From: a virus
Lineage: Duplodnaviria; Caudoviricetes
Strand: one strand, 5' to 3'
Virus record (IMG/VR): IMGVR_UViG_3300029288_004137
Coordinates: 145,975-209,974 of that record
Length of the DNA stretch: 64,000 nt
Positions 1-19,400 of this stretch are shown here, one piece after another. Numbering within the stretch: position 1 is the stretch's first letter; each line of letters begins with the position of its first letter. Below the pieces are notes generated by a model, which ran no database searches, had not been told where the DNA came from, and saw only the letters and a list, made by a program, of their open reading frames with translations. Position numbers and translations under genes: made by a program.

Positions 1-104
1 TTTCTTTCACTTTCATTTTCATTATATGATTCCAAAGAATTTTCTAATTTTTTTATCATTGTCTGAACTTCATCATTTTCTTTTTCTAATGAATTTGTAC
101 TCAT
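1..104 (-). CDS. 5' part of a hypothetical protein running off the window (MSTNSLEKENDEV...)
   Basis: ATG at 104 just after the stop of the gp14-like gene; frame open to the window edge. Confidence 0.5.
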   Translation of the reverse strand, partial: MSTNSLEKENDEVQTMIKKLENSLESYNENESER

Positions 105-118
105 TCTTTCTCACAAAA

Positions 119-604
119 TTAAGTTATATTAAAACCACCTTTTCTAATTCTAATACATGTCGCTTCAATAGAAATTTTATATTGAACCTGACCAAAAAAC
201 AATCTTGGTTCATTGAGTTCTACTATTTCATAATAATTTTTACCATAAACTACTACATCACCAACTCTAACATATAAATCTTGATCCTCTGTTATTCTTC
301 TTTCATGAAAATGTATTTTTATTGAAGATCTACGATCTACTCCTAAATCCGTTGTTTCTGTCTTATGACCTTCCCATTCAACCATAGCATATACATGCAC
401 AGGTGGTAAATATGTTTTATATATTGCTTCTCCATATAAAGAATGAAAATTTGTATGCTCAACACTTATCGGATAATAAAGAACATTTTGTCCAACAACT
501 CTTTCAACAACTTCATCAGAAATCTGTTTTGAAAAATCTCTCTCTTTCTCATTCGTAAATAAAGGAGGCGGAGGAGCTTCTGCCCTTTCCCATTCATTTG
601 ACAT
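119..604 (-). CDS. Neck/head-completion protein, T4 gp14-like
   Basis: GQNVLYY...HSLYGEA...VGDVV..GKNYYEI pattern; lies downstream of the gp13-like neck gene. Confidence 0.65.
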   Translation of the reverse strand: MSNEWERAEAPPPPLFTNEKERDFSKQISDEVVERVVGQNVLYYPISVEHTNFHSLYGEAIYKTYLPPVHVYAMVEWEGHKTETTDLGVDRRSSIKIHFHERRITEDQDLYVRVGDVVVYGKNYYEIVELNEPRLFFGQVQYKISIEATCIRIRKGGFNIT

Positions 605-2582
605 TCTTTATCCTTCTCCATATTTCATCAAGATCAAGCATCTTAAAACGATCTGATTCACTTTGATCTGTTGATGTTTTTGTTCTTGGAATATCATTAA
701 GATCAAGTGTTTGTGCCCTTTCTGATTCAGATTGATCGCTTACTGATTTTATTGGAATTTCTGTTAAATCTGCTTGAGTCCACCTGCCTTCTGCTTCTTT
801 TCTTTTATTTTCTGCATCCTTCTTTTTTTCCCACTGTTTATATACTTCATCATCTTCAATAAATGTTCCATCTACACCATTATCAAGCAAATATTCAATA
901 ATATCAAAATGACCATTTTCTAACGCTTCCCTTAAAGCATAAGGTTCAACAGTATGAATATCAGCTTTATCCTCTCTTTTATCAGAAAGCAGATATTTAA
1001 CAATATCAAAATGGCCCTCTGCTACCGCAAACCTTAAAGGATAATCATTCCAAACATGAATATCAGCACCATACTTAATGCATTCTTTAACTTTATTTAA
1101 AGAACCACTTTCTACAGCGTCTACCAATTCACGATCTAAATAGAAATCTTCTTTTAATAACTTTATTCTCTTCATAACCTCATTAAGATTAAATTTATTT
1201 ACTTCATCATCTGATATGTTTTTAAACTTTCCTTTTATTGCTTTAATTTTTACATCTTTTGATATATTTTTTTTATTTAAATTTTTAATAAAATCTTCCA
1301 AAGAAATTTCTTTATCTAATTTTCTTTTATTTTCTTGTTCCTCTTTCTTTTTTTCTATTTCTTTCCTTTTTTCTTCAACCTTTTTAAACAATTGAGAAAT
1401 TTCTTCTATTTGTTCTGGATTATTCTTCTCTATGTCTGCCTTTGCCATATTTATTAAATACTTTATATTCTTATATAATTTATCATTTTTTGCAAGAAAT
1501 TCATAATTTCCAGTATCAATCGCATTAAAAACATCCATATGATGCTCAATTAAAAACAATAATAATTCCTTATCTTTATAAACAATCTCATCAAGAATTT
1601 TATTGGCAATTTCTATTCCAGACTTCGCATGTCCATGAAAAGAAATTTTTCCATCTTTTTCTTCTCTTGTCGATAACTTACCCACATCATGCAAAATTGC
1701 TAATAATTTATATAACTCTTTTTCTTCTACTGATGTGAATTCAATTAATTTATTCATAGAATTTAACACATTTTCTGTATGCTGTGCTGTAGTTTCTCCT
1801 TTATGAAATTTTGTGTCTTCTATTGAAGATTCCATCCCTTTCCAAATATTTCCAAATATTTTTGATTTTTTTATAATTTCTTTTATCTCTTGATTTAAAT
1901 CTTTATCTTCTTTTAATAGCTTTATTCTCTTCATAACTTCATCAAGATCAAGCATCTTAAAACGATCTGATTCACCTTGATCTGATACTTTTTCTGATCT
2001 TGGAATATCATTAAGTTCAAGTGTTTTCGCTCTCTCTATTTCAGATTGATCATCGATTACTGGATCTACTGGTTTGTCCTCTAAATCCACTCTTTTCCAG
2101 TCTTTTTCTAATATTTCTTGTCTATCAGACCTTAATTGCTTTATCATCACATCAAGTCTTTCATCATGATACGATGGATTTTCTTCTTTAATATCTTCAA
2201 GTCGTTTGATAAATATTGAATAATCTTGTGATGTTATATTATCAGTTTTTTTCAAAAATTTTATAATAAATGTTAAATTGTTAAGACCATAATTTCCATT
2301 ATCAAATCCTTGTATTGCCATTGCAATCATCGTTGAAGCATCATACTTACTCTTAAAAAGTTTATGAATAAATTCCAAATTTCCTTTAAAAATAGCAATA
2401 TAAAAAGAATACTCTTTAAATTTTTCTATTTCTTTTTCTGTTATGACCCCAGTTTCTAATGAATATTTTAAAAAATGATAAAAATGAGACATGTTTACAT
2501 TTATTCTTACATAATATCTAATGTCATCTTTTGCCTTTTTATTCAAATCTACATTCATTAATTTTTCTATATAATTATTCAT
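594..2582 (-). CDS. Modular protein: unknown helical domain + HD phosphohydrolase + ankyrin repeats, separated by EVMKRIKLLKE linkers
   Basis: HD motifs (QHT...LHDVGK...HGHA...EHHM...KAD); ankyrin repeats (GADIH..YPLRFAVAEGHFDIVKYLL); linker ends at aa 225 and 478, with a third copy at the C-terminus. Confidence 0.8.
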   Translation of the reverse strand: MNNYIEKLMNVDLNKKAKDDIRYYVRINVNMSHFYHFLKYSLETGVITEKEIEKFKEYSFYIAIFKGNLEFIHKLFKSKYDASTMIAMAIQGFDNGNYGLNNLTFIIKFLKKTDNITSQDYSIFIKRLEDIKEENPSYHDERLDVMIKQLRSDRQEILEKDWKRVDLEDKPVDPVIDDQSEIERAKTLELNDIPRSEKVSDQGESDRFKMLDLDEVMKRIKLLKEDKDLNQEIKEIIKKSKIFGNIWKGMESSIEDTKFHKGETTAQHTENVLNSMNKLIEFTSVEEKELYKLLAILHDVGKLSTREEKDGKISFHGHAKSGIEIANKILDEIVYKDKELLLFLIEHHMDVFNAIDTGNYEFLAKNDKLYKNIKYLINMAKADIEKNNPEQIEEISQLFKKVEEKRKEIEKKKEEQENKRKLDKEISLEDFIKNLNKKNISKDVKIKAIKGKFKNISDDEVNKFNLNEVMKRIKLLKEDFYLDRELVDAVESGSLNKVKECIKYGADIHVWNDYPLRFAVAEGHFDIVKYLLSDKREDKADIHTVEPYALREALENGHFDIIEYLLDNGVDGTFIEDDEVYKQWEKKKDAENKRKEAEGRWTQADLTEIPIKSVSDQSESERAQTLDLNDIPRTKTSTDQSESDRFKMLDLDEIWRRIKNVK
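624..661. repeat. 38-bp exact dispersed repeat, copy 1 (others at 1938-1975 and 13839-13876)
   Basis: ttcatcaagatcaagcatcttaaaacgatctgattcac is present three times; encodes ESDRFKMLDLDE on the minus strand. Confidence 0.95.
1938..1975. repeat. 38-bp exact dispersed repeat, copy 2
   Basis: Identical to 624-661; near-identity with copy 3 continues about 50 bp further. Confidence 0.95.
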
Positions 2583-2586
2583 ACAA

Positions 2587-3867
2587 TTATCCTATATAAA
2601 TTTTTCTTGGAACACCAGATTTTATCTTTTGAACATTCTCGATCATTCCTGCTTCTCTTTCAAGAAGTTTATCGTATGTCATTTCTTTTAAATCTTCTTT
2701 AAAATTATCTTTTAATTCTTTCATCTCTGCTTGTGCTTCAGTTATTAAAGCAGCACCATCAAGAGTAGCATTATCCCCTGGAATTGGAATTGGAGAATAT
2801 TTCCTTCTTATATACCCTAGCATTTCTTTACATATTGCTAATGCATACTTTCTTATCCATCTTTTACCTATTGAATTTATCGCACTATAAGGTATATTTG
2901 TAAAAGGTAAAGTACCAAGATTATTTGCTCCACTTAATCCAGTATCATTATCTGAATCTTCTTCTGTCCAAGGATTTTTTAATATTTTAAATTCAAACCA
3001 CATCTTTTGAACATAAGAATCTCTTGGAGGTGGAAATATTCTTAATTTATTATTTCTTATCGTATATGAAAAATTAGATAATCTTGTGCTTATCGCATCT
3101 TTATACATAATTGATTGTAATTTATTCTGCCAAACAGGTACTACCTCATAAACTGTAGAATCTGCATATTGACCATAATTTGATAGATTACCTACAACAT
3201 TAACTCCACCATGATATCCATAAAAATTCCAAAAAGCAGCTTTCGTTTTATAATAAACTTTCGTAATAACAATTTTCTTTATTGATCCACTAGCACCTAC
3301 TAAACCAGCATAATCTACTCCACCTTCAGCAGAAGATTCTTCAACTATTGATTGAAGATCATAATCTTGTTTTTCATCTTCTATATTAAAAGAAGCAGAA
3401 TAAAAAGTTACATCTCCACCTATTCTTGCTTCTGACGCAAGAGTATTTCCTATCTTTCTAGCTGCCATAAATTGAATCTTAGGATACTTTAATTCAATGT
3501 TTGATCCAGATAAAGCATCCCCAACAAGCACTTGTCCATTGCCATCAAAAGATGCAGTTTGAAATCCTAATAAACTTCCAATTGTATTATATCCTTGATG
3601 AATATTCATTAAATATGAATATTCTAAACATGCTTCCTCATATGATGCATATACTTGATATTCTGTTATTTCAACATTTAATACATCACCCCCAAGTCTA
3701 TGATATACATAATTGACTTGTTCTACAGCAGCATTTTTAAAATCTGAAGAATCATACACACCAAATGGTAATGGATTTGTTGTTATATCTACATTTGAAA
3801 CTGTTCCTGTTATTGGAAGTGCTATTGCAACTGTTGTACTGACTGGACTTAACACAGGATAAGCCAT
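2587..3867 (-). CDS. Neck protein, T4 gp13-like
   Basis: RLGGDVLNVEIT and WIRKYALAICKEMLGYIRRKY..IPIPG...LDG motifs; likely ATG at 3867 (MAYPVL) with GGAG 6 nt upstream. Confidence 0.75.
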   Translation of the reverse strand: MAYPVLSPVSTTVAIALPITGTVSNVDITTNPLPFGVYDSSDFKNAAVEQVNYVYHRLGGDVLNVEITEYQVYASYEEACLEYSYLMNIHQGYNTIGSLLGFQTASFDGNGQVLVGDALSGSNIELKYPKIQFMAARKIGNTLASEARIGGDVTFYSASFNIEDEKQDYDLQSIVEESSAEGGVDYAGLVGASGSIKKIVITKVYYKTKAAFWNFYGYHGGVNVVGNLSNYGQYADSTVYEVVPVWQNKLQSIMYKDAISTRLSNFSYTIRNNKLRIFPPPRDSYVQKMWFEFKILKNPWTEEDSDNDTGLSGANNLGTLPFTNIPYSAINSIGKRWIRKYALAICKEMLGYIRRKYSPIPIPGDNATLDGAALITEAQAEMKELKDNFKEDLKEMTYDKLLEREAGMIENVQKIKSGVPRKIYIG

Positions 3868-3896
3868 TATTTTCTCCAACGATAGACTAACCTGTA

Positions 3897-3904
3897 ATAA
3901 GTAG
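3897..3904 (-). promoter_or_regulatory. Putative late promoter motif (CTACTTAT)
   Basis: Variant of the CTATTTAT motif that recurs in intergenic gaps. Confidence 0.45.
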
Positions 3905-3925
3905 TTTGTTTAAATTATAAACTTA

Positions 3926-5419
3926 TTAATGAAGAAAATCCATTATATATATATTTGATCCACATCCATATATTTTTTGAACATTTGCTTCTTCTGCTAT
4001 TTGTTTTTCAGTTTTTCCTAAAATTGACCTAAAAATAAATCGATTAAAACGATCCTTTCCATCTGTATAACCATATGATGGATTCGTATATCCAAACAAT
4101 GTAAATCCACTTTTTAAATAAACCTTTCCATCTCCATAATTCAAATCTGCATAACTTAAAATTCCACTATACCCATTGTTCTTAGACCACAAAATTACTG
4201 CTTTTAAAAGTCTAGAAAAACCTCCTCTCACAACTACATTTAATTTATTAGCAAAACGACATATCTCTATCTTCCCTTTATATTTTGTATGAAAAGGTCC
4301 CCTCAATGATAAACAAGAAACTAGTTCGTCTTTATATACCAAACCAAATGCCATTTTAGAAACAGAATAACCAGAAATATGATTATTTTCAAAAAAGTTT
4401 TTATATTGATTATTTCTAAATAATTCAACAACTTTACATTTTCTTGCATCAATCTTTGTTTCTACTTTTCCAAGTTTATATTTAATCATTGATTTAATAA
4501 TTTTTTGCTTATTTCTCCATTCATCTGAATAAATTTGGAATAAAGATATACCTTTTTCCAAACATCCTAAATATTTATCTTGATGATATCTTTTAGATTT
4601 AGTTACTTCGTTATGCCAAAATAAACCATTATATTCTATAGCAATCTTTTTTTCTGGAATGTATATGTCTAATTCTTTTGGTCTTAAAATAGTTCTGTCT
4701 CCTCTTATTATATTATATTCTTCTGCTACTGAAGAAATAAATTCATATAATTCATATTCTTCTTTTGATTTCCCAGAAAAACAATATTTGCATGAAGAAC
4801 CTTTATGTAAAGTCATTAAATTATTTTCTTGTTCTTTTCCACATAACAAACATTTAACTTTAACTGTTTGAAGTCTTGAAAAATATTCATCAAATGGAGT
4901 TAAAAGTTCTAGTTTGTTTTCTTCAATAAATTTTTGTTTATATTCATTGAATTTTTCTTCAGTTAAAGCACTTGCATTTTTTTTGCCAGATATTGATATT
5001 GAATATTTTAAAATTGATTCATTCGTTTCTTTCGTTAATCCCTTTTTCCATCCTGCATCAATTGTTTTACTTTCTATACCATCAAAACCATATTGTTTTG
5101 ACCAACTTTTTCTTCCTTCTCCAGCATGATCAAAACAAAACCTTTTAAATCCATATTTTCCTTTCACATAACTTGTCTTCTGTCCACAAATAGGACAAAC
5201 AGGACGATTTGCTTTAAAAAAATACATTTCTACATATTTTTCCATTGAAAAATTATGAAACGCTCCAACATGTCCTGCTAATCCTGCTTTACTTTTAAAT
5301 AATTTTTTGCAAATTTGACATTCAACTTTTTCTTTTTCTGTAACTTCTGCACATATATCAAAATGACCTTTGTTCCTATCCCCACTCATATCTTTTCTCC
5401 TTCTTCTATTTAAATCCAT
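3926..5419 (-). CDS. Hef-like homing endonuclease: zinc fingers + PD-(D/E)XK nuclease + C-terminal acetyltransferase-like domain
   Basis: C2H2 CQICKK..GHVGAFH, CPICG, WKKGLTKET, CLLCG..CKYC; ELDIYIPEKKIAIEYNGLFWH; GGFSRLLK..SYADL..GDGKVY..GF. Confidence 0.7.
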   Translation of the reverse strand: MDLNRRRRKDMSGDRNKGHFDICAEVTEKEKVECQICKKLFKSKAGLAGHVGAFHNFSMEKYVEMYFFKANRPVCPICGQKTSYVKGKYGFKRFCFDHAGEGRKSWSKQYGFDGIESKTIDAGWKKGLTKETNESILKYSISISGKKNASALTEEKFNEYKQKFIEENKLELLTPFDEYFSRLQTVKVKCLLCGKEQENNLMTLHKGSSCKYCFSGKSKEEYELYEFISSVAEEYNIIRGDRTILRPKELDIYIPEKKIAIEYNGLFWHNEVTKSKRYHQDKYLGCLEKGISLFQIYSDEWRNKQKIIKSMIKYKLGKVETKIDARKCKVVELFRNNQYKNFFENNHISGYSVSKMAFGLVYKDELVSCLSLRGPFHTKYKGKIEICRFANKLNVVVRGGFSRLLKAVILWSKNNGYSGILSYADLNYGDGKVYLKSGFTLFGYTNPSYGYTDGKDRFNRFIFRSILGKTEKQIAEEANVQKIYGCGSNIYIMDFLH

Positions 5420-5429
5420 AATATCATAT

Positions 5430-5437
5430 TTAAATAG
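5430..5437 (-). promoter_or_regulatory. Putative late promoter motif (CTATTTAA)
   Basis: Motif variant 10 nt upstream of the nuclease ATG and downstream of the capsid terminator. Confidence 0.4.
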
Positions 5438-5514
5438 TTTTGTTAAGGGGATTATGACTTGCTATTTATTTTTGAAAAACAACAAAGGGGTAATGACTAT
5501 ATTTTATTGAAATT

Positions 5515-5550
5515 AAAAAAATGCCCTTCAAAAGATATTGAAGGGCATTT
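5515..5550 (-). terminator. Rho-independent terminator after the major capsid gene
   Basis: Perfect 13-bp stem aaatgcccttcaa/ttgaagggcattt, 6-nt loop, U-tract on the minus strand, 25 nt after the stop. Confidence 0.9.
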
Positions 5551-5575
5551 GTGTTAGAAATTACTTAATGATTAC

Positions 5576-7360
5576 TTAACCTTGGAGATCTCTGATAATG
5601 ACAAGACCATACATATCAGGACGTACCATCTTTTTCCCGTATCTCGTCATGACTCCTTTTCTTGGTGTGAAATTCTCAGGATCGAAGATCACAGGAGTTG
5701 TTTGGAGAGGCACGTATGGTGAATAAACGTATCCACTTTCAAGGAACGAAGATCCTTTTCTACCAACAAGGATTACGTTTCTATAGAAATATGGTGATAC
5801 ATAAATATCCCATTTATTGCTAATACTACCCACCTTGATGCTTCCTGCTGATCCTTTCTCATCATCAGGTGCCGTAACGTTTGTAGAGAATCCACGAACC
5901 ATCTCAAGAATTGCAGATGTTTCAGGACCACAGACGAGGAAGTTTGCACCACCCCGAAGTGTCTTTCTATGAATTTCTGCCGATACGTCATTGATAGTTT
6001 CAAGCAATGTTTGATACCATTCAGACACGTTACCAGTGAAATCAGGAGGAGCTGTAGCACTTGTGATATCTGCACCAGTCTCTCTATTAACAAAGAGTCC
6101 AGGGCGTCTTGACCAATAATATGTCCGTGCTGTAGCACCCTTTACTAAGTCTTGAAGAATTTCACCATCGATTTCCATACCAATGTGCTCAGAAAGAACC
6201 GAAGTTAATTCTGTTTCAGCATCAGTTGAGTGATATGCTTGAAGATCTTGACCTGCTTCAGGTGTCCATACCGCCTTAAGTTTTCTTGTTTGTGCGACAA
6301 TAGGAATACTATCAACCTTAATGTTGATTTCAGGAATTGAATCCTCGTTTTCTAATTGCCAAACAGAACCTCCCACAACTGCTCCAATACCACTGCTTAC
6401 TTCAGAAATATTATCATTGATAGAGAATGACATTTCCATATCAGATGTAGCAGAAGCAGAAGACCACTTGTTTGTATCTGCATCAAAACTTGCATCCACA
6501 TTTGCAGTAGCAACTAAAAATACAAATCTAACATAAAGAGGATATGCTGAATAATCAGGTGCTCCTGCTGAGTCACAAAGACATGTTAATCTTCGTACAA
6601 GTTGTCCCATTGAAGAACTTAATGCTGTTCCACCCGTAGGAAGCAAGTTAATAGAAGAATAATCCTTTACATTGAATTGATCCCAATCTGCTGTTCCATC
6701 TGTATGAGTTTCAAATGTAGAGGTTAATGCTACAGCAACAAGAGCAGAATAACTTGCTTTTCCAATAAGATCTTCATCCCATTGAATCAACTTTCCCTGA
6801 GCGTCTGTGACTGTTCCATCAAGATCAATCGCATCAGCAACAAGAACAATAGACTCAGAAGGAACATTATTATAACCGATTGCATGAGAATAACTGTTAT
6901 TAAGATTATAGAGCCCTTTTTCTGCATAAGGATCTGTAATCGAAACACCATTGGCAATTTCAGAAGCAACTGAATCAGTACCATAAATTGAACCACCAGT
7001 GCTAAGCGGTCCTCTTGTTGAATTATATCTGAAATCCAAGAAGAATATCAGTCCTGATGGTAAACTCATTGGTTGAACAGAAACTACATCATTTGCTAAA
7101 AGTCCAGCAAATACTCTTCGAACAAGAGGAAATGCAACAGACGCAAATCCTTGAACATCCCCACCTTCCATTGTTGTTGCTTCTCTAAGTAAAGAAGCTG
7201 CTTGATTCTCTAAAAGTCTAACCACTGTATGCTTTCTATACTCATCATGATCAAGACCTTCAAGAAGTCCTGTTTTTGACCACTTTTTAACCAAACGATT
7301 CGTTTCAAGAATCATGTCCGGTCTAACGATGTCTTCCGTTAATTTCTTTAAGATACCCAT
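5576..7360 (-). CDS. gp23: Major capsid protein, T4 gp23-like
   Basis: KW..TGLLEGL, LLENQ, FPLVRRVF, VSVQPMSLPSGLIFFLDF, TRKLKAVWTPE..QDLQAYH, YSPYVPL, PRKGVMTRYG. Confidence 0.97.
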   Translation of the reverse strand: MGILKKLTEDIVRPDMILETNRLVKKWSKTGLLEGLDHDEYRKHTVVRLLENQAASLLREATTMEGGDVQGFASVAFPLVRRVFAGLLANDVVSVQPMSLPSGLIFFLDFRYNSTRGPLSTGGSIYGTDSVASEIANGVSITDPYAEKGLYNLNNSYSHAIGYNNVPSESIVLVADAIDLDGTVTDAQGKLIQWDEDLIGKASYSALVAVALTSTFETHTDGTADWDQFNVKDYSSINLLPTGGTALSSSMGQLVRRLTCLCDSAGAPDYSAYPLYVRFVFLVATANVDASFDADTNKWSSASATSDMEMSFSINDNISEVSSGIGAVVGGSVWQLENEDSIPEINIKVDSIPIVAQTRKLKAVWTPEAGQDLQAYHSTDAETELTSVLSEHIGMEIDGEILQDLVKGATARTYYWSRRPGLFVNRETGADITSATAPPDFTGNVSEWYQTLLETINDVSAEIHRKTLRGGANFLVCGPETSAILEMVRGFSTNVTAPDDEKGSAGSIKVGSISNKWDIYVSPYFYRNVILVGRKGSSFLESGYVYSPYVPLQTTPVIFDPENFTPRKGVMTRYGKKMVRPDMYGLVIIRDLQG

Positions 7361-7375
7361 TTAAAAAATCCTCCA

Positions 7376-8689
7376 TTAATTTTTCTTACTTTTTATTCCT
7401 GCCATTTTTTGCATCTTTTCTTTTAAAAGTTGTTCTTCTTTCGTTTCACCCGAAGAAGGTTTTCTATTTTTAAGAGCAAATGCAACCTCATTTAAGCGTA
7501 TTTTGTTTTCTTGTGGTTCTTCAACTGAATGATTTTCAACAATAATCTTTTTCGTTGAATTCATAAACTTTTCAAAAACACCCTTCGCTTCATTAAGGGT
7601 TTTGGTTTTATTAACAGCATCAACAAGTTCTCTCTTTTGTCGCTCATTCAAAGAGTCACTGCTTAAAACCCTATTTTCTATCATTGTCTGCGTAGTTGTC
7701 AAATTCGTTTTCTTTAATTCCTTTCCGAAAACGATAAGAGCTTCTCTTAACACGTTATTTTGCTCTTCTAAATTAGATAGTCTGTCTCTAATCAAAAAGA
7801 TATTTCTTTTTAATACTTTATTAACTTTTTTATATGATTCTTCAAGATCTTCTTCTTTTTTAGGTTTTTCTTTTCTTGAATCTTCTGCTTTTGGAGCTTG
7901 ATTTAAAATATTTGAATTCTCTTCATCTTCTAAATCATTTGTTGCTATTTTGGAAGATTCTTGTGTATTTGAATTAGCACTATAATCACCAATTATTCCT
8001 TCTGGTACTGCTTCAAAATCAATTATATCTTCTTCTTTTTCTTCATCTGCATCTAATTCTTCCTCTTCTTCAAGAAATTCTAATGTTCCTTCTTGGAGAT
8101 AAGATACATTTCCATCTTGTTCTTCTGGTTTAGATCTTTCTGCTCCTAATTGAGCATCGGTTTCTTCTTTTTCATAATCTAAACTAATATCAGGACTTTC
8201 CCCATCACCATCCTCTATATTTAATTCATCTGTTATTTCTTCTGTTTTTCCTCCATCTTCTTCTTTTGCTATTTGAGATAATTGATCCAAATCAATTGTC
8301 ATCATTTCATCTTCACCTGGAGAATCCTTACCACCTATATTTTCTCCATCTGCAAAAGATTTACCTATTTCTTTATCAGAAAAAGGTTCATTTTGAACTG
8401 GTGCTTTTGAACCTTCTGCTCCACCTTCACCAGACATTGTTTCAAGATCTGGAGATCCTTCTCCTCCTAATTCATCTACATCTCCTGTAGATCCTTCGTT
8501 TCCACCTAAAAGAAGATCCTTATCTTCTTCTTTTCCCTCTTCAGCTTCAAAAAGTTTTTTATTAATTATTCTTTTGAATTCTTTTGAATATTTTTCAATT
8601 AATTCTGATTGAGCACTTTTTTTCGCAACATCTTTAAGTGCTTCAGCATCAATGATTGCTCGCTCTAACATTTTTGATTTATCACTCAT
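7376..8689 (-). CDS. Prohead core scaffolding protein, gp22-like
   Basis: Acidic and coiled-coil; AIIDAEALK..A at the N-terminus and KMQKMAGI at the C-terminus; directly upstream of the capsid gene; ATG 8689 with GGAG. Confidence 0.75.
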   Translation of the reverse strand: MSDKSKMLERAIIDAEALKDVAKKSAQSELIEKYSKEFKRIINKKLFEAEEGKEEDKDLLLGGNEGSTGDVDELGGEGSPDLETMSGEGGAEGSKAPVQNEPFSDKEIGKSFADGENIGGKDSPGEDEMMTIDLDQLSQIAKEEDGGKTEEITDELNIEDGDGESPDISLDYEKEETDAQLGAERSKPEEQDGNVSYLQEGTLEFLEEEEELDADEEKEEDIIDFEAVPEGIIGDYSANSNTQESSKIATNDLEDEENSNILNQAPKAEDSRKEKPKKEEDLEESYKKVNKVLKRNIFLIRDRLSNLEEQNNVLREALIVFGKELKKTNLTTTQTMIENRVLSSDSLNERQKRELVDAVNKTKTLNEAKGVFEKFMNSTKKIIVENHSVEEPQENKIRLNEVAFALKNRKPSSGETKEEQLLKEKMQKMAGIKSKKN

Positions 8690-8712
8690 TTTTAACTCCA
8701 CTAAATCTAATA

Positions 8713-8720
8713 ATATATAG
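8713..8720 (-). promoter_or_regulatory. Putative late promoter motif (CTATATAT)
   Basis: Motif variant in the gap upstream of scaffold and capsid genes. Confidence 0.4.
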
Positions 8721-8736
8721 TTATTTCTGTTTTCAA

Positions 8737-9168
8737 TTAATTATTTATACCATCAAGAGTAGTTCCTAATGAAGCAGATGATAATTCATATAATTGTGGT
8801 TCTATCGATGTCATTTCTGCCGCTAAACAATAAGATCCACTTGCTCCATTGCACAACGTAGAAAGATAAATTCTATTACACTTAATATCAAATTTTATAT
8901 AAGGAACATTATTATCAAGAACATAATAATGATGATTATTCATAATAGGATTGCCAACAAGAGATCTTGAATCAAAATATAAAATAATTGGGACAGATCC
9001 ATCAAGAGTTCTAACTGTTATTGATTTAGTTAATGACGGAAAACTTATTTCTACACCATCACTTGTATCTACTGTGTCTGGTACTTCACTTCCTGTTAAA
9101 TATGGTCTGCCAGAAGATTGATATGCCGCTGCTGATCCTGGTCCTACCTTATATGTTCGTGATGGCAT
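8737..9168 (-). CDS. Hypothetical virion protein
   Basis: Beta-rich composition, in the head module, has TGS/SGS motifs. Confidence 0.5.
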   Translation of the reverse strand: MPSRTYKVGPGSAAAYQSSGRPYLTGSEVPDTVDTSDGVEISFPSLTKSITVRTLDGSVPIILYFDSRSLVGNPIMNNHHYYVLDNNVPYIKFDIKCNRIYLSTLCNGASGSYCLAAEMTSIEPQLYELSSASLGTTLDGINN

Positions 9169-9171
9169 CTA

Positions 9172-9396
9172 TTATTCTCCATTCATTTGTTGTTTACTAT
9201 CTAAATACTTTCTCACTTTTGCTCGTTCTTTTTTTTCTTTCTTGGCAACAGAAGGTTTTTTATATCTTTTTGAAAAAGCACAAGTTTCCTTTAGTTCTTC
9301 AACAAGTTTTTCCTTTTTGGTTAACCGAATAAACCTCTCAACAAAAGATAATGATGATTCCCCTTTCTCTGCTACCAATTGAAAATTAATTGCCAT
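9172..9396 (-). CDS. rpsU: Phage-encoded ribosomal protein bS21
   Basis: 74 aa, basic; GES...ERF.R..KK..LVEELK...YKKPSVAKKEK..RA matches the bS21 pattern; GAGGTGAT RBS. Confidence 0.75.
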   Translation of the reverse strand: MAINFQLVAEKGESSLSFVERFIRLTKKEKLVEELKETCAFSKRYKKPSVAKKEKKERAKVRKYLDSKQQMNGE

Positions 9397-9415
9397 ACAT
9401 CACCTCATAATAAAT

Positions 9416-9808
9416 TTATAAACCAAAAGCTTTAAGATCTACACCAGGGTCATTTGGATTTACATCTGATAGTGGTGTTCTTCCAAAAATTTCATTTTGT
9501 TTCAATTCAACAGGAGATTTAACAGGAGATAGAGGAACCGTACCTTCAAACATTTGCCCCATTCCTTTTTCTTTGAATGATTTTAATTTTTCTTCTACCA
9601 CTAAATTATTCATATTCATTCCCATTAAATTAAGTCTTTTAGGAGTCTTAACAGGACTTGCTTGTTTCTTTTCAACTAAAAATTCTTTATCACTAAAACC
9701 TTTAAAAACTTCAGTAATTACTTTTGATAACAATCCATCAAAAAGCATTTCATTTACACATTCTTCAATAATCGGTTTTAGTATCTTTTTTAATTCTGAT
9801 TTCTTCAT
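9416..9808 (-). CDS. Hypothetical head-associated protein
   Basis: N-terminal MKKSELKKILKPIIEECVNE; overlaps the protease stop codon. Confidence 0.6.
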   Translation of the reverse strand: MKKSELKKILKPIIEECVNEMLFDGLLSKVITEVFKGFSDKEFLVEKKQASPVKTPKRLNLMGMNMNNLVVEEKLKSFKEKGMGQMFEGTVPLSPVKSPVELKQNEIFGRTPLSDVNPNDPGVDLKAFGL

Positions 9809-10428
9809 TTTTCACCTTTATATAAAATACTATTTAAAATACGATTTATTTTGTCACTTCTTGTAAAATATAAACTCGTTTTTTGCTTGGATTCTTTCAT
9901 CAAAAACGCATCAACAGTTGATGGTTCAGTTACTATATCAAAACAAATTAATTGAAAATCATCTTCAACAATTATATCTTCCCCTTTCTCATGAACAGAA
10001 CCAAGTCCTCTAGAACTTATACCTATCTTTATGCCATCATTGATTAATGACTTTAAAATTTGTCCAGATGGGCCACTTAATACTTTTAATTTTCCATATA
10101 AATTTTTGCCTTCCCACCACAATTTCTTAATAACATGAGAAAGATTTTTTGCATCAATTTCTGAAGAATCTGGATGGTTTAATTCTCCTACAGAACGATT
10201 CTCTCTTATAAGTTTTTCATAGTTCTTAACCTCTGATTCTAATACCTCATAAGGATATATTCTTCCATTTTGGTTTTTTTCATCAGCTTTCTGAAATATT
10301 CCTGAAAGATATAAAGCACCATTATCTCTGATATCTTTTTTTTCTTCTTCTGTCAAGAGGTCCTGACAAACCCCATCTGGACATAAAGAAAAATACTCTC
10401 TAAGAATATATTTTTTATTATTTTCCAT
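9805..10428 (-). CDS. gp21: Prohead protease, T4 gp21-like
   Basis: NQNGRIYP, GELNHP, IGISSRGLGS, FDIVTEPST. Confidence 0.95.
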   Translation of the reverse strand: MENNKKYILREYFSLCPDGVCQDLLTEEEKKDIRDNGALYLSGIFQKADEKNQNGRIYPYEVLESEVKNYEKLIRENRSVGELNHPDSSEIDAKNLSHVIKKLWWEGKNLYGKLKVLSGPSGQILKSLINDGIKIGISSRGLGSVHEKGEDIIVEDDFQLICFDIVTEPSTVDAFLMKESKQKTSLYFTRSDKINRILNSILYKGEK

Positions 10429-10840
10429 TTTTTTTGCTTTCTACTAATCCCTTGTATATTTCTTTATAAATTTTGTTTTCATAAAGTCCATTAGGTAAAT
10501 CAAATGGATCATACATAGGATCTACATTAGGATCTTCTGTCCCATCCATTTCAAAATCTCTTTTTCTTGAATTTGCATAATCCATTTTTGTTTTTCCAGA
10601 ATATTTAGGATCTGGATTTAATCCTTCTACATCCCCAAATTCTTCATAGTTTGGATCTTCATTATAAAGTTCCTCTTCCTCAGGCATTTCTTCTTCATAA
10701 TAAGATTCTTCTCCAGCATCAAAACCTTGTGGATCATTATCCCAATAATCACTAAAATCTTCATTTAATTTTGATCCTTTCAATGCTCTTTTTACTTCTT
10801 CTTTTACAATCTTTTTTAAAGTATTCACTTTAATTTTCAT
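10418..10840 (-). CDS. Acidic hypothetical protein with LKKIVKEEV leader
   Basis: GGAG RBS; leader shared with neighbouring genes. Confidence 0.6.
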   Translation of the reverse strand: MKIKVNTLKKIVKEEVKRALKGSKLNEDFSDYWDNDPQGFDAGEESYYEEEMPEEEELYNEDPNYEEFGDVEGLNPDPKYSGKTKMDYANSRKRDFEMDGTEDPNVDPMYDPFDLPNGLYENKIYKEIYKGLVESKKNGK

Positions 10841-10854
10841 CTCTATTTCTCCAA

Positions 10855-11136
10855 TTAATAATCTAATAAAAATAATAAAACTTGTTCAATTTCTTCTCTG
10901 TTTTTCGAATAAACAGTCTGTAATAAATAAGTTTTTAACTGTTCATCACTTAATTTATCAAATTTTTCTTTCAATTCACACGAAGAACACTGCTCTTGTG
11001 GTTTATTCTTTGGATTTGTTTCGTAAGGATCAAGTTTCCCCTTCCCACCAGAAGCTAAAATATATGATTCTTTTTTAAGAATAGAATCTACTTCTTCTTT
11101 AATAATCTTTTTTAATAACCCTTTTTTTATTTCCAC
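10855..11136 (-). CDS. Hypothetical protein with LKKIIKEEV leader
   Basis: GTG start, shared leader, CSSC motif. Confidence 0.55.
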   Translation of the reverse strand: MEIKKGLLKKIIKEEVDSILKKESYILASGGKGKLDPYETNPKNKPQEQCSSCELKEKFDKLSDEQLKTYLLQTVYSKNREEIEQVLLFLLDY

Positions 11137-11211
11137 CTATGACCCCTTACAACAATGTGCCACTCTACGAATTGTAAACCTTTTAAATATTAAATTTTTT
11201 TCAATTCTCAT
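11137..11211 (-). CDS. Small 24-aa ORF MRIEKNLIFKRFTIRRVAHCCKGS
   Basis: AGGTGATG RBS and upstream CTATTTAT motif; fills the gap; missing from the ORF track. Confidence 0.5.
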   Translation of the reverse strand: MRIEKNLIFKRFTIRRVAHCCKGS

Positions 11212-11246
11212 ACATCACCTATTATTAAATCAATAATAACTCCATA

Positions 11247-11254
11247 ATAAATAG
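11247..11254 (-). promoter_or_regulatory. Putative late promoter motif (CTATTTAT)
   Basis: Consensus copy in an intergenic gap. Confidence 0.5.
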
Positions 11255-11267
11255 ATTAATAATTTTA

Positions 11268-12425
11268 CTATTGTACTTTTTCTTTTTCTACCTTTGAATA
11301 ATGTTTAACAAAAGTATCTTCTAGTAATTCTGCCATTTTATATAGTTCTCTTCCATATGATTTACTATCACAAAATACAGTCTTTTCTCTATAATCTTCT
11401 TTTGATACTAGCATACCTCTGTGCTTGCCATCTTTATAATGTCCAGAACCTACAATTGTTCCAGTCTTTATTATAAATCCAGTTAATCGTATTTTTTTAA
11501 GATCTTGAATTGATATAAAAATCTCTGTGTAATAAGCATTAATTTCACGATCATTATAACAGTATATAAAATGAGGAGAATCTGTTTCAACAAATTCATA
11601 ACTAAATTGAGCAAGAACTCTCTCCGTAATACTAATAAATTGCTTCTTTTTATCGTATTTTTGTTTTTCTGTTTGATTAGAAAGTTTAAAGGTAACATCA
11701 TCTGATTCTTTAGCACTTTCTTTAAGTTTTATTCTTCTCCATACTTCATCAAGATCTATCTTTTTTGGATCTAATAATCCTTCAGGAGTAGATCGTTTGA
11801 ATTTTTCTCTTTCATAATCTATTTTATTCGGATCTCTTATTCCTCCAGGAGTAGACCAATTTGTCTTTTCTCTTTCACCCTTTTCATATGGTTCTATTTT
11901 AGAAAATCTATCAGATGCATGATCAGATTTTATATTTCTTAACTTATTTAACACATTATTAATTTCTTCTTGCTCTTTTTCTTTTCTTTTGTTTATTTGA
12001 TAAAGATTTGTTTCTGGAGTATCTAAATCACCATAGTCTCTTTCTGATGCTGAAACAAACTGAATGCTTTCTTCCCCATAAATTTTATTAAGAAATTCAT
12101 CATTATACCCAAATTCATTAAGTTCATCTCTAGAAAAAATTTCTCTTACCTTTCTGTTATAATCCCAATTCCAATTATCACACAAATTTTTTAATGTTTT
12201 CATAGCATTAATAAATTGTTTCATGGAAGAACCATATTCATTATAAATTAATATACTGTTTTTACTTGTATTATCTCTAGCCTCTATATAATCTTCATAC
12301 ATAAGTCTCATTAATCCTTTAATATGCTGTGTTAAATGACCCCCCATACCTGCTGGCATTTTTGCAGATTGACCACTTACCAGATATTTAACATAGAGCA
12401 TTTCTTGTTCACTTAGTTTTTTCAT
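11268..12425 (-). CDS. Two-module hypothetical protein with internal IDLDEVWRRIKLKE linker
   Basis: Linker shared with 594-2582 and 12723-15040; duplicated EREK..STPxG..DPxKID unit just before it. Confidence 0.75.
   Translation of the reverse strand: MKKLSEQEMLYVKYLVSGQSAKMPAGMGGHLTQHIKGLMRLMYEDYIEARDNTSKNSILIYNEYGSSMKQFINAMKTLKNLCDNWNWDYNRKVREIFSRDELNEFGYNDEFLNKIYGEESIQFVSASERDYGDLDTPETNLYQINKRKEKEQEEINNVLNKLRNIKSDHASDRFSKIEPYEKGEREKTNWSTPGGIRDPNKIDYEREKFKRSTPEGLLDPKKIDLDEVWRRIKLKESAKESDDVTFKLSNQTEKQKYDKKKQFISITERVLAQFSYEFVETDSPHFIYCYNDREINAYYTEIFISIQDLKKIRLTGFIIKTGTIVGSGHYKDGKHRGMLVSKEDYREKTVFCDSKSYGRELYKMAELLEDTFVKHYSKVEKEKVQ
11728..11760. repeat. 33-bp exact repeat, copy 1 (other at 12733-12765)
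   Basis: tttattcttctccatacttcatcaagatctatc; encodes IDLDEVWRRI. Confidence 0.95.
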
Positions 12426-12730
12426 TAGTTTTCTCTCTTATTCAAATTTATTTTTATTCCATTATCATCAATTAATTGACACAAAAAATATGATGTTCCA
12501 CTACTTAAACATCCCATAACAAATATATCTAAATAAGTATTCGTTATATTAAATATACTTAATATATTTAAAAAATCACAAAACGAAAATATTATTCCAA
12601 CCCAAAAACCAATGCACATTGGACAATGAAAAAAATTATACTTTGGCCTTATTTTATTAAAAATATCACCATAAACAAGAATTTGTGTGCATCCATAACA
12701 TATAAATATAAAAAATAATAAATTAAGCAT
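12425..12730 (-). CDS. Small membrane protein with CxxC (DUF1360-like)
   Basis: Hydrophobic segments and HCPMCIGFWVG. Confidence 0.6.
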   Translation of the reverse strand: MLNLLFFIFICYGCTQILVYGDIFNKIRPKYNFFHCPMCIGFWVGIIFSFCDFLNILSIFNITNTYLDIFVMGCLSSGTSYFLCQLIDDNGIKINLNKREN

Positions 12731-12732
12731 TC

Positions 12733-12765
12733 TTTATTCTTCTCCATACTTCATCAAGATCTATC
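12733..12765. repeat. 33-bp exact repeat, copy 2
   Basis: Identical to 11728-11760. Confidence 0.95.
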
Positions 12766-13838
12766 ATATCAAGTTGACTTCTTTTTGATACATCTTCTGG
12801 TGATTTAACTTGTGGATACTTTTTCTTTGCGAATTCTACCCACTCATCCCAAGCACTTAAAATCTGCTGTTCTGTCACCATATAATATGGATTTTTTTTG
12901 TTCTCTTTTCTTTCAATTTCAATCCGATCTTTTTCAGCATAAAAAAGATCTTTCATCACATCATATAAATTTCTTTTTAACATTTTTGCTTTTTTATAGC
13001 AATCAGCAACAAATGCTTCAACTTCTTTAGGTTCCTTTAAATATTCTGTTACATCTTTAAAATCTTTAAAATTTTTAGGATCATCTATGTTTTCTTCATT
13101 TCTTTTATGCTGTCTCGTATGCGTTAATTCGTGTGTTAATGTAGATTTAAGTTCAACAACAAATTCAACCGCTAAAGCTAAAGTTCTATATTTACCATTT
13201 TTAGATTTACCATATAATTCAGGTGGTATTATAATTTCTACTTCAACCGTCTTTAAAAACCTTTTTGGATTATCAAGAATCTCATCAATTAAATTTTTTG
13301 GTACATAAGGAGCATAGTTAATAACTATATTTTTCATCAAACTCTTTTTTTCTGTTTCATAATAAGATACCAAAAACAATTCTACCTTTTTTAAAAGACT
13401 TTCATCTCTGGTATTTAAATAAATTCCAAGAATATCCAAAATATCAGATGTTGCACTTTCTGAAAGGTACTTATCACAAAATTCTGCTAATCCAGCTAAA
13501 TTTCCAATATTTTCTGGTACTTCTCTAAGAAAATTTATTACTTTTTCTAATGTTTTCTTTAAAGAATTTTCCACTTGAACTGAATTTAAATAAGATGTCG
13601 CACCACTACTATATATTTTTGAAATTTCTTCAGATTCCTTAACTTTAACACACAAAAAATCTACATCAAATCTATCATTTCCAGGAATTTCGTCTTTTGT
13701 AAAAAGAATATATTCCTGTACTGGCTCATGATTTTTTATTAAATCAATTACTTTTTGAACCACAATTCTTGATATCGCTGTTGTTGTATAATCGGTTACA
13801 CTTTCATTCAATAACATTTTAAATTTGTTTTCTTTGCT

Positions 13839-13876
13839 TTCATCAAGATCAAGCATCTTAAAACGATCTGATTCAC
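13839..13876. repeat. 38-bp exact dispersed repeat, copy 3
   Basis: Identical to 624-661 and 1938-1975. Confidence 0.95.
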
Positions 13877-15052
13877 TCTGATCTGATACTTTTTCTGATC
13901 TTGGAATATCATTAAGTTCAAGCGTTTTTGTTCTTTCTGATTCAGATTGATCATTTGCTGATTTTATTGGTATTTCGTCTAAATCTACTTGAACCCACCT
14001 ATCTTCTACTTGTTTTTTCTTCCACTGTTTATATACTTCGTCGTCTTTAATTGCTGTTTCATCTACACCATTATCAAGTAAATATTCAATAATATCAAAA
14101 TAACCATAAAGTGCTGCACTTGTTAAAGCATAATAATCAAGAACATGAATATCAGCACCATTTCAACAAGATATTTTACAATATCAAGATAACCGTATTT
14201 TACTGCCCAAAATAAAGGACCCTCCTTAAAAACATGAATATCAGCACCATGCTCAACAAGATATTTAACCATATCTAAATCACCATTTTCTACTGCCAAC
14301 CGTAAAGTGCAATCATTAACAGCATGAATATCAGCACCATGCTCAACAAGATATTTAACAATATCAAAATAACCACGTTTTGCTGCAATTCGTAAAGCAT
14401 GATCACGTTCAGCATGAATATCAGCACCTTGCTCAATTAAATTTTTAACTTTGTCTAAATCACCTTTTTTTGCTGCATCCATTAATTCTAGATCTAAATT
14501 TCTATCTTCTTTTAATAATTTTATTCTTCTCCGTACTTCATCTAGTTCAATCATATCAATTTGATTTCTTTTTGGTTCTTGTGTTTTCTTTTGTTTTATT
14601 TCACCTTTGCCATTAAAAATATATCTTAATAAATTTCTATATTCTTCAAATAAAAATTCATAATTTCTTTGTATATCTTCTTGTGTAGCATTAACAGGAA
14701 CAACTTTTCCATCTTCAAAAAAAGAATATGAAGTTAATTTACCAGTTTGCATATTAAACGACAATGTTGCTGGCTCTGCATTTTTTCTATGTAAATTTCC
14801 ATCTTTTTCCCAAAACAAAACTAATTCCTTGTTAAAATCCATATAAAATATCTTTGATGGTATTTTTTTAGGAGGTTCTATACCAATCCATCTAATTGAA
14901 TAAATACCATTTTCTGTTCCTTTTATAAACTCAATTCTTGCATTCCCAATATAAACAAATATTTCATCTTTTTTATATTCTTTTATGCCATCAGCATTTA
15001 TACCAATACTCTTTAAATAATTTATAATACGTCCTTTCATTATATCTCCAAA

Positions 15053-15610: not shown

Positions 15611-16424
15611 CTCTGATCTCCCGAACTAACTCCTGTATTTTTAATACTTCTTGAATAAAATTTTTATCAATTTTCTTTTTATTACTATCGGTAAGATTGT
15701 TAATCACTTGCTTTGTTTTTTCTACAAGAATATTATCTTTACTTATTTCTTCTAATAATATTAATTTTGATAATTCTTCTTTTAATCTTTTGATTTCTTC
15801 ATTTAAAAAGATCTTAAGATCTATATCAGAATTTTCTCCTTCAAATGCCAAAACATATCTTTTCAATAAATCTTTTTGTTCTTCATGCAATAAAGAATAT
15901 TCTTCATTAAATTTTTTCAAAAATGTTTTAAATACAATATTATCAATAGGTACTATCTCCTTTTCTTTTTCTGCTTCTACTAACATATTTTTAATAATCT
16001 TCTCTTCTAACATAACTTTGTCAGATATCTCCAATGATTCATTTAATATTAAACAAATTGTTGCCATTTCTTTATAATTTGAAACAAAATTTTCAAATAA
16101 TTCAGGACCAAACAATGTATTAATTTTTTTAATTAATTTTGATTGTTGCTTGTATAAATCTTTTCTATTTACAAATTCTTTCTCTTTTTTAATCTCTAAT
16201 AAAACACGATTTGCTACATTATTTGTCAATCCTTTTGATTCAATTAAAACACGATATAAAGACAAATCTTTATTTAAAACTGTTCCTTTTTTAAAAAACT
16301 CTTTAATAATTGAAAGAATAGTATCTTTTTTTTCTTTTTTTTCATCCATAGATGATTTCACACTTTCTATTATAAGAATTTCATAGAGAAACGCAGTATT
16401 CCTTTTTTTATTATGTTTGATCAT
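15600..16424 (-). CDS. Hypothetical protein downstream of the portal, possibly prohead core
   Basis: KHNKKRNTAFLYE N-terminus; helical; probable ATG at 16424. Confidence 0.6.
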   Translation of the reverse strand: MIKHNKKRNTAFLYEILIIESVKSSMDEKKEKKDTILSIIKEFFKKGTVLNKDLSLYRVLIESKGLTNNVANRVLLEIKKEKEFVNRKDLYKQQSKLIKKINTLFGPELFENFVSNYKEMATICLILNESLEISDKVMLEEKIIKNMLVEAEKEKEIVPIDNIVFKTFLKKFNEEYSLLHEEQKDLLKRYVLAFEGENSDIDLKIFLNEEIKRLKEELSKLILLEEISKDNILVEKTKQVINNLTDSNKKKIDKNFIQEVLKIQELVREIRDGN

Positions 16425-19400
16425 CAATTTGTTCTTCCTCATCTTTTTTTATCAATTTTTCAATAAGTTTTATCTTTGAATCAATATTCTCTTGCTGTTC
16501 AAAAATTGCTCTAACTCTTCTTGGATAATTAGTTTTATCAATATTAAATATTGAATTGTCACCAGAAAACATATTCTTTAAATTAGGAATCGCTGTTTGT
16601 TTCTTTGTTAAACCCATCTGTTTTCTTGAAGATGGACGTTGAGACATATTACCCTGAGATCTCATACTATGAGATATTTCTTTGTGCTTGGGATTTATAA
16701 CACGTAATTCGTGATTATGCTCTTTATCTGTTGAATGCTCTTTGTACTTGCCTAAAGAAGTTTTTCCAACACTCCTTCTACCCGGTGCTGCTAAAAGCGT
16801 TTCATCCTCATCCCCTCCTTCCTTACTTTCTCCACCTCCACCACCCAACAAATCCTCTCCACCTCCTTCTTCACCTTCACCCTCTCCTCCCAATGAATCT
16901 TCATCACCCTCTCCACCTAACAAATCTTCATCAGATCCAGATATAGGAGCGCCCATATCACCACTACCACCTTCTAGCATTCCTTCAAGAACTGATTGTA
17001 ATTTACTATCTGCAAACAATTCCGCTCTGATACGTTTTTGTTCATCACTTGAAAGTTGTTTGATATTTTCATCAACCCATCTAGTAGACATACCAGAAGA
17101 TTTCGCTGCCTCTACAGCATCAAATCTTGTTTTCCACAATTCAATTTCTTGAAGTTCAGAAATCTTAGAAGGATTATTAAGAATAATTTCATAAGAAACT
17201 AAATCAGCATTCTTATATCCCATTGCAGCTAAATGTATCCTTGCTACTTTTTCTAATTCGGTCACAACTGCATTTTGTAACCTTTGTATTGTTCTAGCAA
17301 AACGAATATCTTTTTGTGAAAGAGAAGATTTATCATCATCACCCGCTTCAGCAGTTAAATAAGAAGCAGGTATCTTGATTGCTGAAAACATTTTATCTCT
17401 AAAATATTTAATATCATCTACATCACCAGTATAAGATCCACCTGCTAATGTTTCAATTTTTGTATTATCTTCTTTTCCTCTTACTGGAATTATATAATCA
17501 TCTTCAATAGATGTAGCACTATATCTTTGATCTACTCGTCCTGTTAAATGATCGACAACTTGATTTTTCTTTAAAGTCATTCTAAATTCTTCAACATAAT
17601 TTTCTTCTTCTTCTGCTGGTATGCCACCCATATCCAAATAAAAAACTCTTCTTTCTGGTGATCTGACTATACGATAACTCATTACTGCATCTTCTAACAT
17701 CGTATTATGAGAAACAATTCCATTCGCAACAAAGTTATGAATTTCATTATCTACTTGTAAATCATATGTATCTACTAATTTTTCTTCATCTATTATATGA
17801 GATACGTTTTCAAAAGAAATATCTGTATCGTCTATATCATCTAAATTTATATATAATCTATATGAATCTTTTCTTGTTATAGTCCCAAACGTTTTATCCT
17901 CATAAACACCTGCTTTCTTACTTAATTTTATTTCATTGCCTACTGCAACACCACATTGCTGACATAAAATCTGGACATCATTCATTAATTCATAATTTGA
18001 CAAACTTAATCTTTTATCTTTTTTACTTCCATCTGCATCCATTAATCCACGTAATAATTCAATTTTATTTACTTTACTTAAAGAATAAACCCACGATGGT
18101 ATTCTTTTATTTTCAAATCCACTTATAAATCCAAGTTTTTTAAATAAAGAAATACATTCTTTTGACGAAATATTTACCTGTGCTCCTTTATTCTTTTGTG
18201 CTTCAGTTAAACACATCTTTTTTTCTGGAGAAAACAAACTCTCCATTAAATTAATATAATACTGATTTTGTTCTTCATATATACCTAAAGCAAAACCAAT
18301 ACTTTTACGATCTTCATTAATCCATCCATCTCCTAACATAAATCCAAATAATCTCATAAACTCTGGGTTTGTTTTAAATATGTGATCTGTACTTAAGAAA
18401 GATTTTTTATGTATTTTTCCATTTCCAAAATAAAGATCTTCGTCTAATTTTATTTCATAATAATCTTTTGTAGTTTCCCAATTATTAGGAAGAACTAATT
18501 TGTCTGCATTTTTTGCCTTTGATCCACCATCTCCGTCACTCACTATTAAATCTTTTGCTTGTTTATATACAAACTTTCCATTTTTATCATAAACTAACAA
18601 TCCGTGATTTGGAGTAACTTCTATTTGTCTATGTGAAGTAACCACCTTAATAACTCGTTGCTTTCCCATATTCCTGCATTCTTTTACTTTAGATTCAATA
18701 AGTTTATTATTATCGAAATCATAAGATAATATTATGTCATCAGAGTGTATATCCTTTATTTGTTTATACCCTTTGTCTTTTGTCCAAAGGGGAGTATGAC
18801 TCGCACAACACAATTGCCTCCAAATCCTCCGTGCTGGATCTAGTACAGCTGTACCATATGGAGAATATTTATCATTTCCAAGCAATCTAAAATGTGCTAT
18901 TTGAAAGTTTTCAAAGGTTAAACCCCCTGAATTCCACTGAAACTGAATATATAGTGGATTATCGGAATCTTGTCCTTCTAATCTTTCTATTTCTTCTTGT
19001 GGTAATGGAATCACATTTCTAATTCCTTTTCCGTCCTTTACATCTAAAAATAGAAAAAAATCACCAAATTTACATAGAGATCTAACCCAATAAAACAAAT
19101 TAAACTCAACATTTAAAATATTATAAAAAAGATTATCTAAAACCTCTTTGATTTCATAGTTTTTACATTTTATTCTTATAATTGGACTCATCATAGAAAA
19201 CGTAGTTATTTCATCTGCATATATATCTAACGCAGATGCTAACTCTGGCATGTATTCCATTTGTTCAAAATCTTGATATCTTTCAAATCTCCACTGACTT
19301 GCCATTTGATTTGTATTAAGATTGGCAAATGGATCGTATGTATATCTTTTAAATTTTTTCCCAGAAGTTGAAGTAAATTTAAATTTATTTAAATTCTTTC

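Follow-up and report, generated by a model that had tools for sequence, protein, structure and literature searches.

The DNA analysed here, called the window, is the final 64 kb (64,000 nucleotides) of one 209,974-bp contig (about 28% G+C), the virus record IMGVR_UViG_3300029288_004137. Its positions 1-19,524 form a T4-superfamily head module in which every gene lies on the minus strand (Table 1). Placed among the portal, capsid and sheath genes are genes for multi-domain proteins, including a 662-amino-acid (aa) protein that combines HDIG, ankyrin and other modules. The modules of these proteins are joined or ended by a recurrent short peptide, hereafter the tag, which has the core LDLDEVWRRIK, usually followed by LLKE. 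Nine copies of the tag, six internal and three C-terminal, are present in the 210-kb genome and are confined to five open reading frames (ORFs) representing four genes, all of the head module. Together these genes encode an HDIG hydrolase, three ankyrin arrays, an HExxH module and four modules without a family match. As argued below, the probable fate of the tagged proteins is loading into the capsid and cleavage into separate pieces inside it.

A first-pass annotation had reported seven copies of the tag; all seven are found on the minus strand at the positions it gave. A six-frame search of the genome added two in a 254-aa ankyrin protein, one near its N-terminus ending in LLKE and the other C-terminal. 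When the 2,758 six-frame ORFs were searched with a profile made from eight copies, eight matches scored 25.7-37.2 bits, all in the five head-module ORFs; the runners-up were the degenerate ninth copy at 7.1 bits and another match at 5.8 bits. Since the next-best score is far lower, the motif is exclusive to these five ORFs, and its occurrence is far beyond chance.

In all nine copies the basic part is opened by L-[DN]-E (LDE or LNE), a triplet of the I/L-x-E type, and its core follows the pattern hydrophobic residue, R/K, R, I, K. Internal copies have a second L-x-E (LKE or LNE) 9-12 residues further on, as first described. C-terminal copies had been thought to be devoid of a cut site; all three miss only the second one, the place of its Glu being occupied by the stop codon. 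In the degenerate copy (13803-13856) the basic core is gone and both sites, LDE and LNE, are kept. The tag is therefore a basic amphipathic peptide of about 10 residues (9-12) with two candidate cut sites when internal and one when terminal. None of the polyproteins bears it at the N-terminus. Four copies stand at the end of paralogous acidic linkers, each about 65 aa long and built as a degenerate tandem repeat of 20 aa; these four long linkers share 77-91% nucleotide identity with each other. The other five copies are short tags within unrelated sequence, and BLAST similarity between non-paralogous modules is limited to the tag.

The close identity of the long linkers fits recent duplication or gene conversion, and the tag could accordingly be read as a linker spread by recombination, or as an oligomerisation helix, in late cytoplasmic multi-domain proteins that are neither packaged nor cut. 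Its acidic and basic halves might allow self-pairing, and the L-x-E triplets, which are frequent in the proteome, would be incidental. We consider this unlikely. The five short tags have no surrounding DNA homology, yet their peptide is kept through synonymous changes: at the five invariant residue columns, pairwise codon differences were synonymous in 42 cases and non-synonymous in 7, so that the peptide is conserved and not a nucleic-acid element. A reading of the tag as an RNA or DNA motif was set aside on the same count. Furthermore, the degenerate copy retains both cut sites despite the loss of its core, and the tagged genes are insertions specific to this lineage, in a structural operon that otherwise shows synteny with the closest relative. 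Set against that relative, the 662-aa and 254-aa genes are lineage-specific additions amid conserved head-completion and sheath genes, and the other two tagged genes lie between portal and protease, where the relative has large variable proteins of its own.

The ankyrin proteins bear on the same question. An iterative search found 31 ankyrin ORFs in the genome, of which just three, those of the head module, bear tags; two tagged arrays had been counted before. The absence of tags from the paralogs outside the head module, about 27 ORFs at 35-49 kb, 70-76 kb and 110-111 kb of the genome and all outside the window, also speaks against the linker or helix reading, and these paralogs provide a built-in control set within the genome. 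Their first repeat starts directly at the N-terminus, and they have a different conserved C-terminal tail. In the tagged proteins, the predicted cut after LKE would fall about 6 residues ahead of the point where the free paralogs start. Because only the head-module ankyrins among about 30 are tagged, the tag is, by this comparison of paralogs, an add-on and no part of the fold, as the first-pass annotation had supposed in treating it as separate from any one domain. In a single-sequence AlphaFold2 model of the 662-aa protein, with a mean predicted local distance difference test score (pLDDT) of 51.6, the ankyrin array was confident and the tags appeared as short isolated helices (residues 213-222, 467-477 and 652-656) within low-confidence coil. 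Long linker 1 was modelled as coil with a pLDDT of 30-34 followed by the first of these helices, and the helix of tag 2 also had a low pLDDT.

The 662-aa protein has the order helical N-module (residues 1-160), acidic long linker with tag 1, HDIG module, tag 2, ankyrin array, and acidic long linker with tag 3. Its HD hydrolase, already recognised at first pass, occupies residues 226-465 and matches TIGR00277 (39.9 bits, cut-off 27.6) and Pfam HD (28.8 bits, cut-off 22); among solved structures, it comes closest to the HD domain of an A-adding enzyme (4e-6). These matches identify it as an HDIG domain, a relative of the HD domain found in CCA/A-adding enzymes. The gene that had been described as frameshifted apparently misses one A at 14161-14163; reading on in the -1 frame restores the ankyrin repeat and gives an ORF that is open down to 12723. 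Programmed frameshifting was set aside: no slippery heptamer is present, and the -1 frame has a TGA just upstream. A deletion or an error of assembly therefore appears more likely. The two modules of the 385-aa protein had no family match in profile searches, no family match was found for an LHR..PA domain that had been named earlier, and, in all, the four modules besides the HDIG, ankyrin and HExxH ones gave none in family-profile or PDB searches. The 305-aa product of the frameshifted gene has no record elsewhere, and the 662-aa and 377-aa products have no whole-protein homologs beyond themselves and generic HD and ankyrin matches.

As for the HExxH zincin announced in the first-pass annotation, the motif is present in a helix-like context in the product of 12723-13856. 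The module is a putative zincin by this motif: the match to Pfam Tox-MPTase2 at the motif is weak (E = 4.8), the module has no homologs and no PDB relative, and its structure model (mean pLDDT 38.8) was unusable, being too poor for a fold search. This motif nevertheless raises the question of whether the tagged proteins are polyvalent proteins (Iyer et al. 2017) processed by their own HExxH metallopeptidase, before or after delivery, and not by the prohead protease. Polyvalent proteins often depend on such peptidases (PMC5512222). This explanation seems very improbable, given that HExxH occurs in only one of the four genes, in a module with no significant family or structure match, and that the junction residues fit the gp21 preference and the cut sites of the phage's own capsid and scaffolding proteins.

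A gp21 homolog had been proposed between the tagged genes, and the protein at 9805-10428 is readily identified as such by PF03420 (S77; 4e-35, 121.5 bits, cut-off 27) and phrog_207 (3e-57). It is 41-52% identical to the proteases of IMG/VR relatives. In an alignment with Tequatrovirus gp21 and three relatives, the columns of T4 His85 and Ser140 are invariant; these are the catalytic residues of T4 gp21, which prefers to cleave at I/L-x-E (PMC12991175). An N-terminal L-R-E of the protease aligns with T4 L-I-E-9 (PMC9026906). Similarly, L-R-E at residue 60 of the capsid protein aligns with L-T-E-65, the maturation cut of T4 gp23, the propeptide of which has 65 residues (PMC5694885). The scaffolding protein has LLKE near its C-terminus, and similar triplets are found near the C-terminus of the scaffolds of relatives. 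Three small proteins encoded next to or near the protease gene start with peptides that end in a hydrophobic residue, any residue and Glu (Table 1), and the same ending is seen in the N-terminal basic peptides of many proteins of relatives.

The closest database phage is LR756508.1, an unannotated 484-kb uncultured phage with a capsid-protein identity of 38.6%; megablast of the region against the phage database gave no match. Dozens of head-region genes of LR756508.1 begin with such a basic peptide. At least 19 ORFs around its head genes (locus L038, 151958-193517) start with a near-identical one, of consensus KKLRKIIREEL, and several paralogs begin with MKFKELLKE-type peptides, which looks like a very large address-tagged set. 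A profile made from the 19 N-termini ranked the 140-aa protein first and the 93-aa protein second genome-wide, and found no internal copies in relatives. In the relatives, large or paralogous head-region proteins start with MKFKLLKE-type peptides, which come near the RIKLLKE end of the tags; these motifs are N- or C-terminal, not between domains. The resemblance of the tag to such address-like peptides is no more than suggestive, since the profile of the N-termini gave no scoring match to the polyprotein tags. In the closest relative, a 985-aa protein encoded between portal and protease (L003 4651-7608) begins with MKFKLLKE and has a similar basic motif 15 residues before its stop, so it appears to be tagged at both ends.

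Repeat proteins such as Hoc-like decorations occur on T4-type heads. By analogy with these, and given that the tagged genes lie within the head module, the tag might anchor proteins outside the capsid, displaying the ankyrin arrays for adhesion, with no internal cargo at all. We regard this as most unlikely: a phosphohydrolase and a peptidase-like module would have no obvious use on the surface, the tag is flanked by cut sites, and it is similar to the peptides at the N-termini of the acidic core-like proteins encoded next to the protease.

The capsid-targeting sequence of T4 internal proteins and its processing by gp21 were reportedly described by Mullaney and Black in 1996. T4 IPI, IPII, IPIII and Alt combine a capsid-targeting sequence with gp21 processing (PMC9026906, PMC3012670, PMC5694885); in the targeting sequence, 10-19 residues long, targeting and processing depend on different positions (PMC9026906), and the cuts in Alt fall at ITE-6 and LTE-619 (PMC5694885). 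The system studied here has in common with T4 a gp21-family protease, a short peptide with an I/L-x-E end that is shared by unrelated proteins encoded near head genes, and variable cargo behind a constant tag; C-terminal trimming also occurs in Alt. It differs in that the T4 tag is strictly N-terminal on single-protein cargo, whereas the tags here lie between modules or at the C-terminus, with two bounding sites and an acidic LDLDE lead-in. No sequence homology between the tag and the T4 tag could be demonstrated.

Like polyvalent proteins (PMC5512222), the tagged proteins combine several unrelated domains in one polypeptide encoded beside virion genes, and delivery with the DNA and proteolytic release are predicted for both. 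However, release of polyvalent proteins is attributed to embedded zincin peptidases, and here to a morphogenetic protease predicted to act at a repeated linker; no polyvalent hallmark domain (ART, ArdC-N, DdrB-ParB and others) was detected in family-profile searches. In the giant phages phiKZ, 201phi2-1 and SPN3US, which have propeptide-bearing head and ejection proteins, a protease related to gp21 cleaves many head proteins after Glu (PMC5694885, PMC10052503), a single propeptide may contain several sites, and the propeptide termini are conserved between paralogs. Their propeptides, in contrast to the tags, are N-terminal and often of 100-250 residues, with that of the protease itself C-terminal, and joints between separate functional modules are not described there.

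Taken together, five independent lines of sequence evidence partly support targeting to, and processing by, the head protease: the restriction of the tags to the head module, the catalytic residues of the protease, the L-R-E of the capsid protein, the N-terminal basic peptides, and the untagged ankyrin paralogs. We therefore favour, as moderately probable, the reading that the tags are an internal and C-terminal version of the T4 capsid-targeting and processing system acting on multi-domain cargo. The cargo proteins would be expressed late, and during prohead assembly the basic peptide would dock each precursor onto the scaffolding core, as the T4 capsid-targeting sequence does. Cleavage by the gp21-type protease at one or both of the Glu residues beside the tag would then separate the HDIG, ankyrin, HExxH and four other modules and remove the C-terminal tag copies, much as T4 Alt is processed at its two ends. 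Once free, the modules would remain in the head and exit with the DNA. We infer each of these steps, from docking and cutting to retention and ejection, and likewise any effect on the host. When the scaffold, with an alignment of 11 rows, was co-folded with a tag segment of 38 residues, the score was 0.00, which counts neither for nor against binding.

Several points weigh against this reading. The phage is uncultured, one of the cargo genes is frameshifted in the assembly, and the structure model of the 662-aa protein is of low confidence. The proteome, which is AT-rich, has many L-x-E triplets, about 1-3 per 100 residues. T4-type targeting sequences are N-terminal, which the tags are not, and their likeness to the N-terminal peptides of relatives is based on short hand-made comparisons and did not carry over to the profile made from those peptides. 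Finally, the tag was found in no other phage. A degenerate DNA pattern for it gave only chance matches in IMG/VR, a regular-expression scan of 21 related head loci and a back-translated search of JGI metagenome contigs gave none, and when 1.84 billion proteins were searched exhaustively with a profile, the phage's own two proteins were the sole matches. Related phages carrying the linker, for which a profile scan had been suggested at first pass, were thus not found. The idea of a swappable platform is accordingly supported within this genome, where the long linkers are so alike, and did not extend to any related phage.

More tentatively, and with some doubt, the tag may represent a position-independent capsid-loading signal of a new kind: a basic decapeptide, internal or C-terminal, that would be excised on both sides and would load strings of unrelated effectors with one docking each, their modules being exchanged by linker recombination. 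No description of address-like linkers between modules was found in the literature. If the loading and processing reading is right, T4-type phages go beyond N-terminal addresses on single internal proteins and use multi-module cargo whose joints are address-plus-cut-site cassettes. The delivery of ready-made enzymes and binding proteins by large uncultured phages at infection would thereby be explained, and a simple sequence rule for spotting injected proteins would become available for metagenomic phages. Such cassettes would also be a natural design for bringing several proteins from one construct into T4-based capsid vehicles.

Table 1. Features of the head module and of the tagged genes (window positions unless stated otherwise).
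Feature	Position	Strand	Remarks
662-aa polyprotein	594..2582	minus	Pfam Ank, HD; HDIG; orphan as a whole protein
Long linker 3 and C-terminal tag 3	597..791	minus	LDE present; stop at second Glu position
Tag 2, short form between HDIG and ankyrin modules	1149..1193	minus	LNE at 468, LKE at 478
Long linker 1 (residues about 160-225), ending in tag 1	1908..2105	minus	LDE at 215, LKE at 225
gp23-family major capsid protein	5576..7360	minus	2.6e-70
gp22-like scaffolding protein	7376..8701	minus	LLKE at residues 425-428, near C-terminus
130-aa protein, ortholog of protease-adjacent small proteins in relatives	9416..9808	minus	N-terminal peptide ending IIE, then E
gp21-type prohead serine protease	9805..10428	minus	Pfam S77 PF03420, phrog_207
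140-aa acidic core-like protein	10418..10840	minus	N-terminal basic peptide ending VKE, then E
93-aa protein	10855..11136	minus	N-terminal basic peptide ending IKE, then E
385-aa protein, two modules joined by 20-aa tandem repeat and tag (11718-11759)	11268..12425	minus	
Frameshifted gene, part two: rest of ankyrin array, long linker with degenerate tag, HExxH module, C-terminal tag (12726-12764)	12723..14162	minus	
Frameshifted gene, part one: N-module, tag (14507-14551), start of ankyrin array	14123..15040	minus	
Frameshift point, A-run one base short	14161..14163	minus	-1 reading resumes ankyrin repeat
Portal protein, gp20 family, with intein containing LAGLIDADG	16411..19524	minus	Upstream limit of head module
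Seven tag copies of the window	1908-1952, 1149-1193, 14507-14551, 11718-11759, 13803-13856 (degenerate), 597-638, 12726-12764	minus	
254-aa ankyrin protein with two further tag copies	L001:15318-16079	minus	Just upstream, outside the window

The only other contig with the 662-aa gene belongs to the same phage. It is a 3-kb scaffold of JGI sample 3300037067, with one single-nucleotide polymorphism and a 10-N scaffold gap at which gene callers divide the 662-aa gene in two; being the same phage, it cannot serve as an independent check on variation or on the frameshift.

Several neighbouring genes were also noted, all on the minus strand. A 497-aa homing-endonuclease-like ORF (3926-5419; phrog_3339, 1e-80) is located between the capsid gene and the next structural gene. 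The intein of the portal protein matches Pfam Intein_splicing (6.8e-19), and the closest IMG/VR relative has an intein at the identical site. Between two of the polyprotein genes, 12425-12730 encodes a 101-aa Cys-containing membrane protein whose location is conserved in the closest relative (L003 4346-4642). A 280-aa protein (15600-16442) adjoins the portal and is conserved there in all relatives. With 17 I/L-x-E triplets, or 6 per 100 residues, it has the maximum of the head module, as expected for a degraded core protein.

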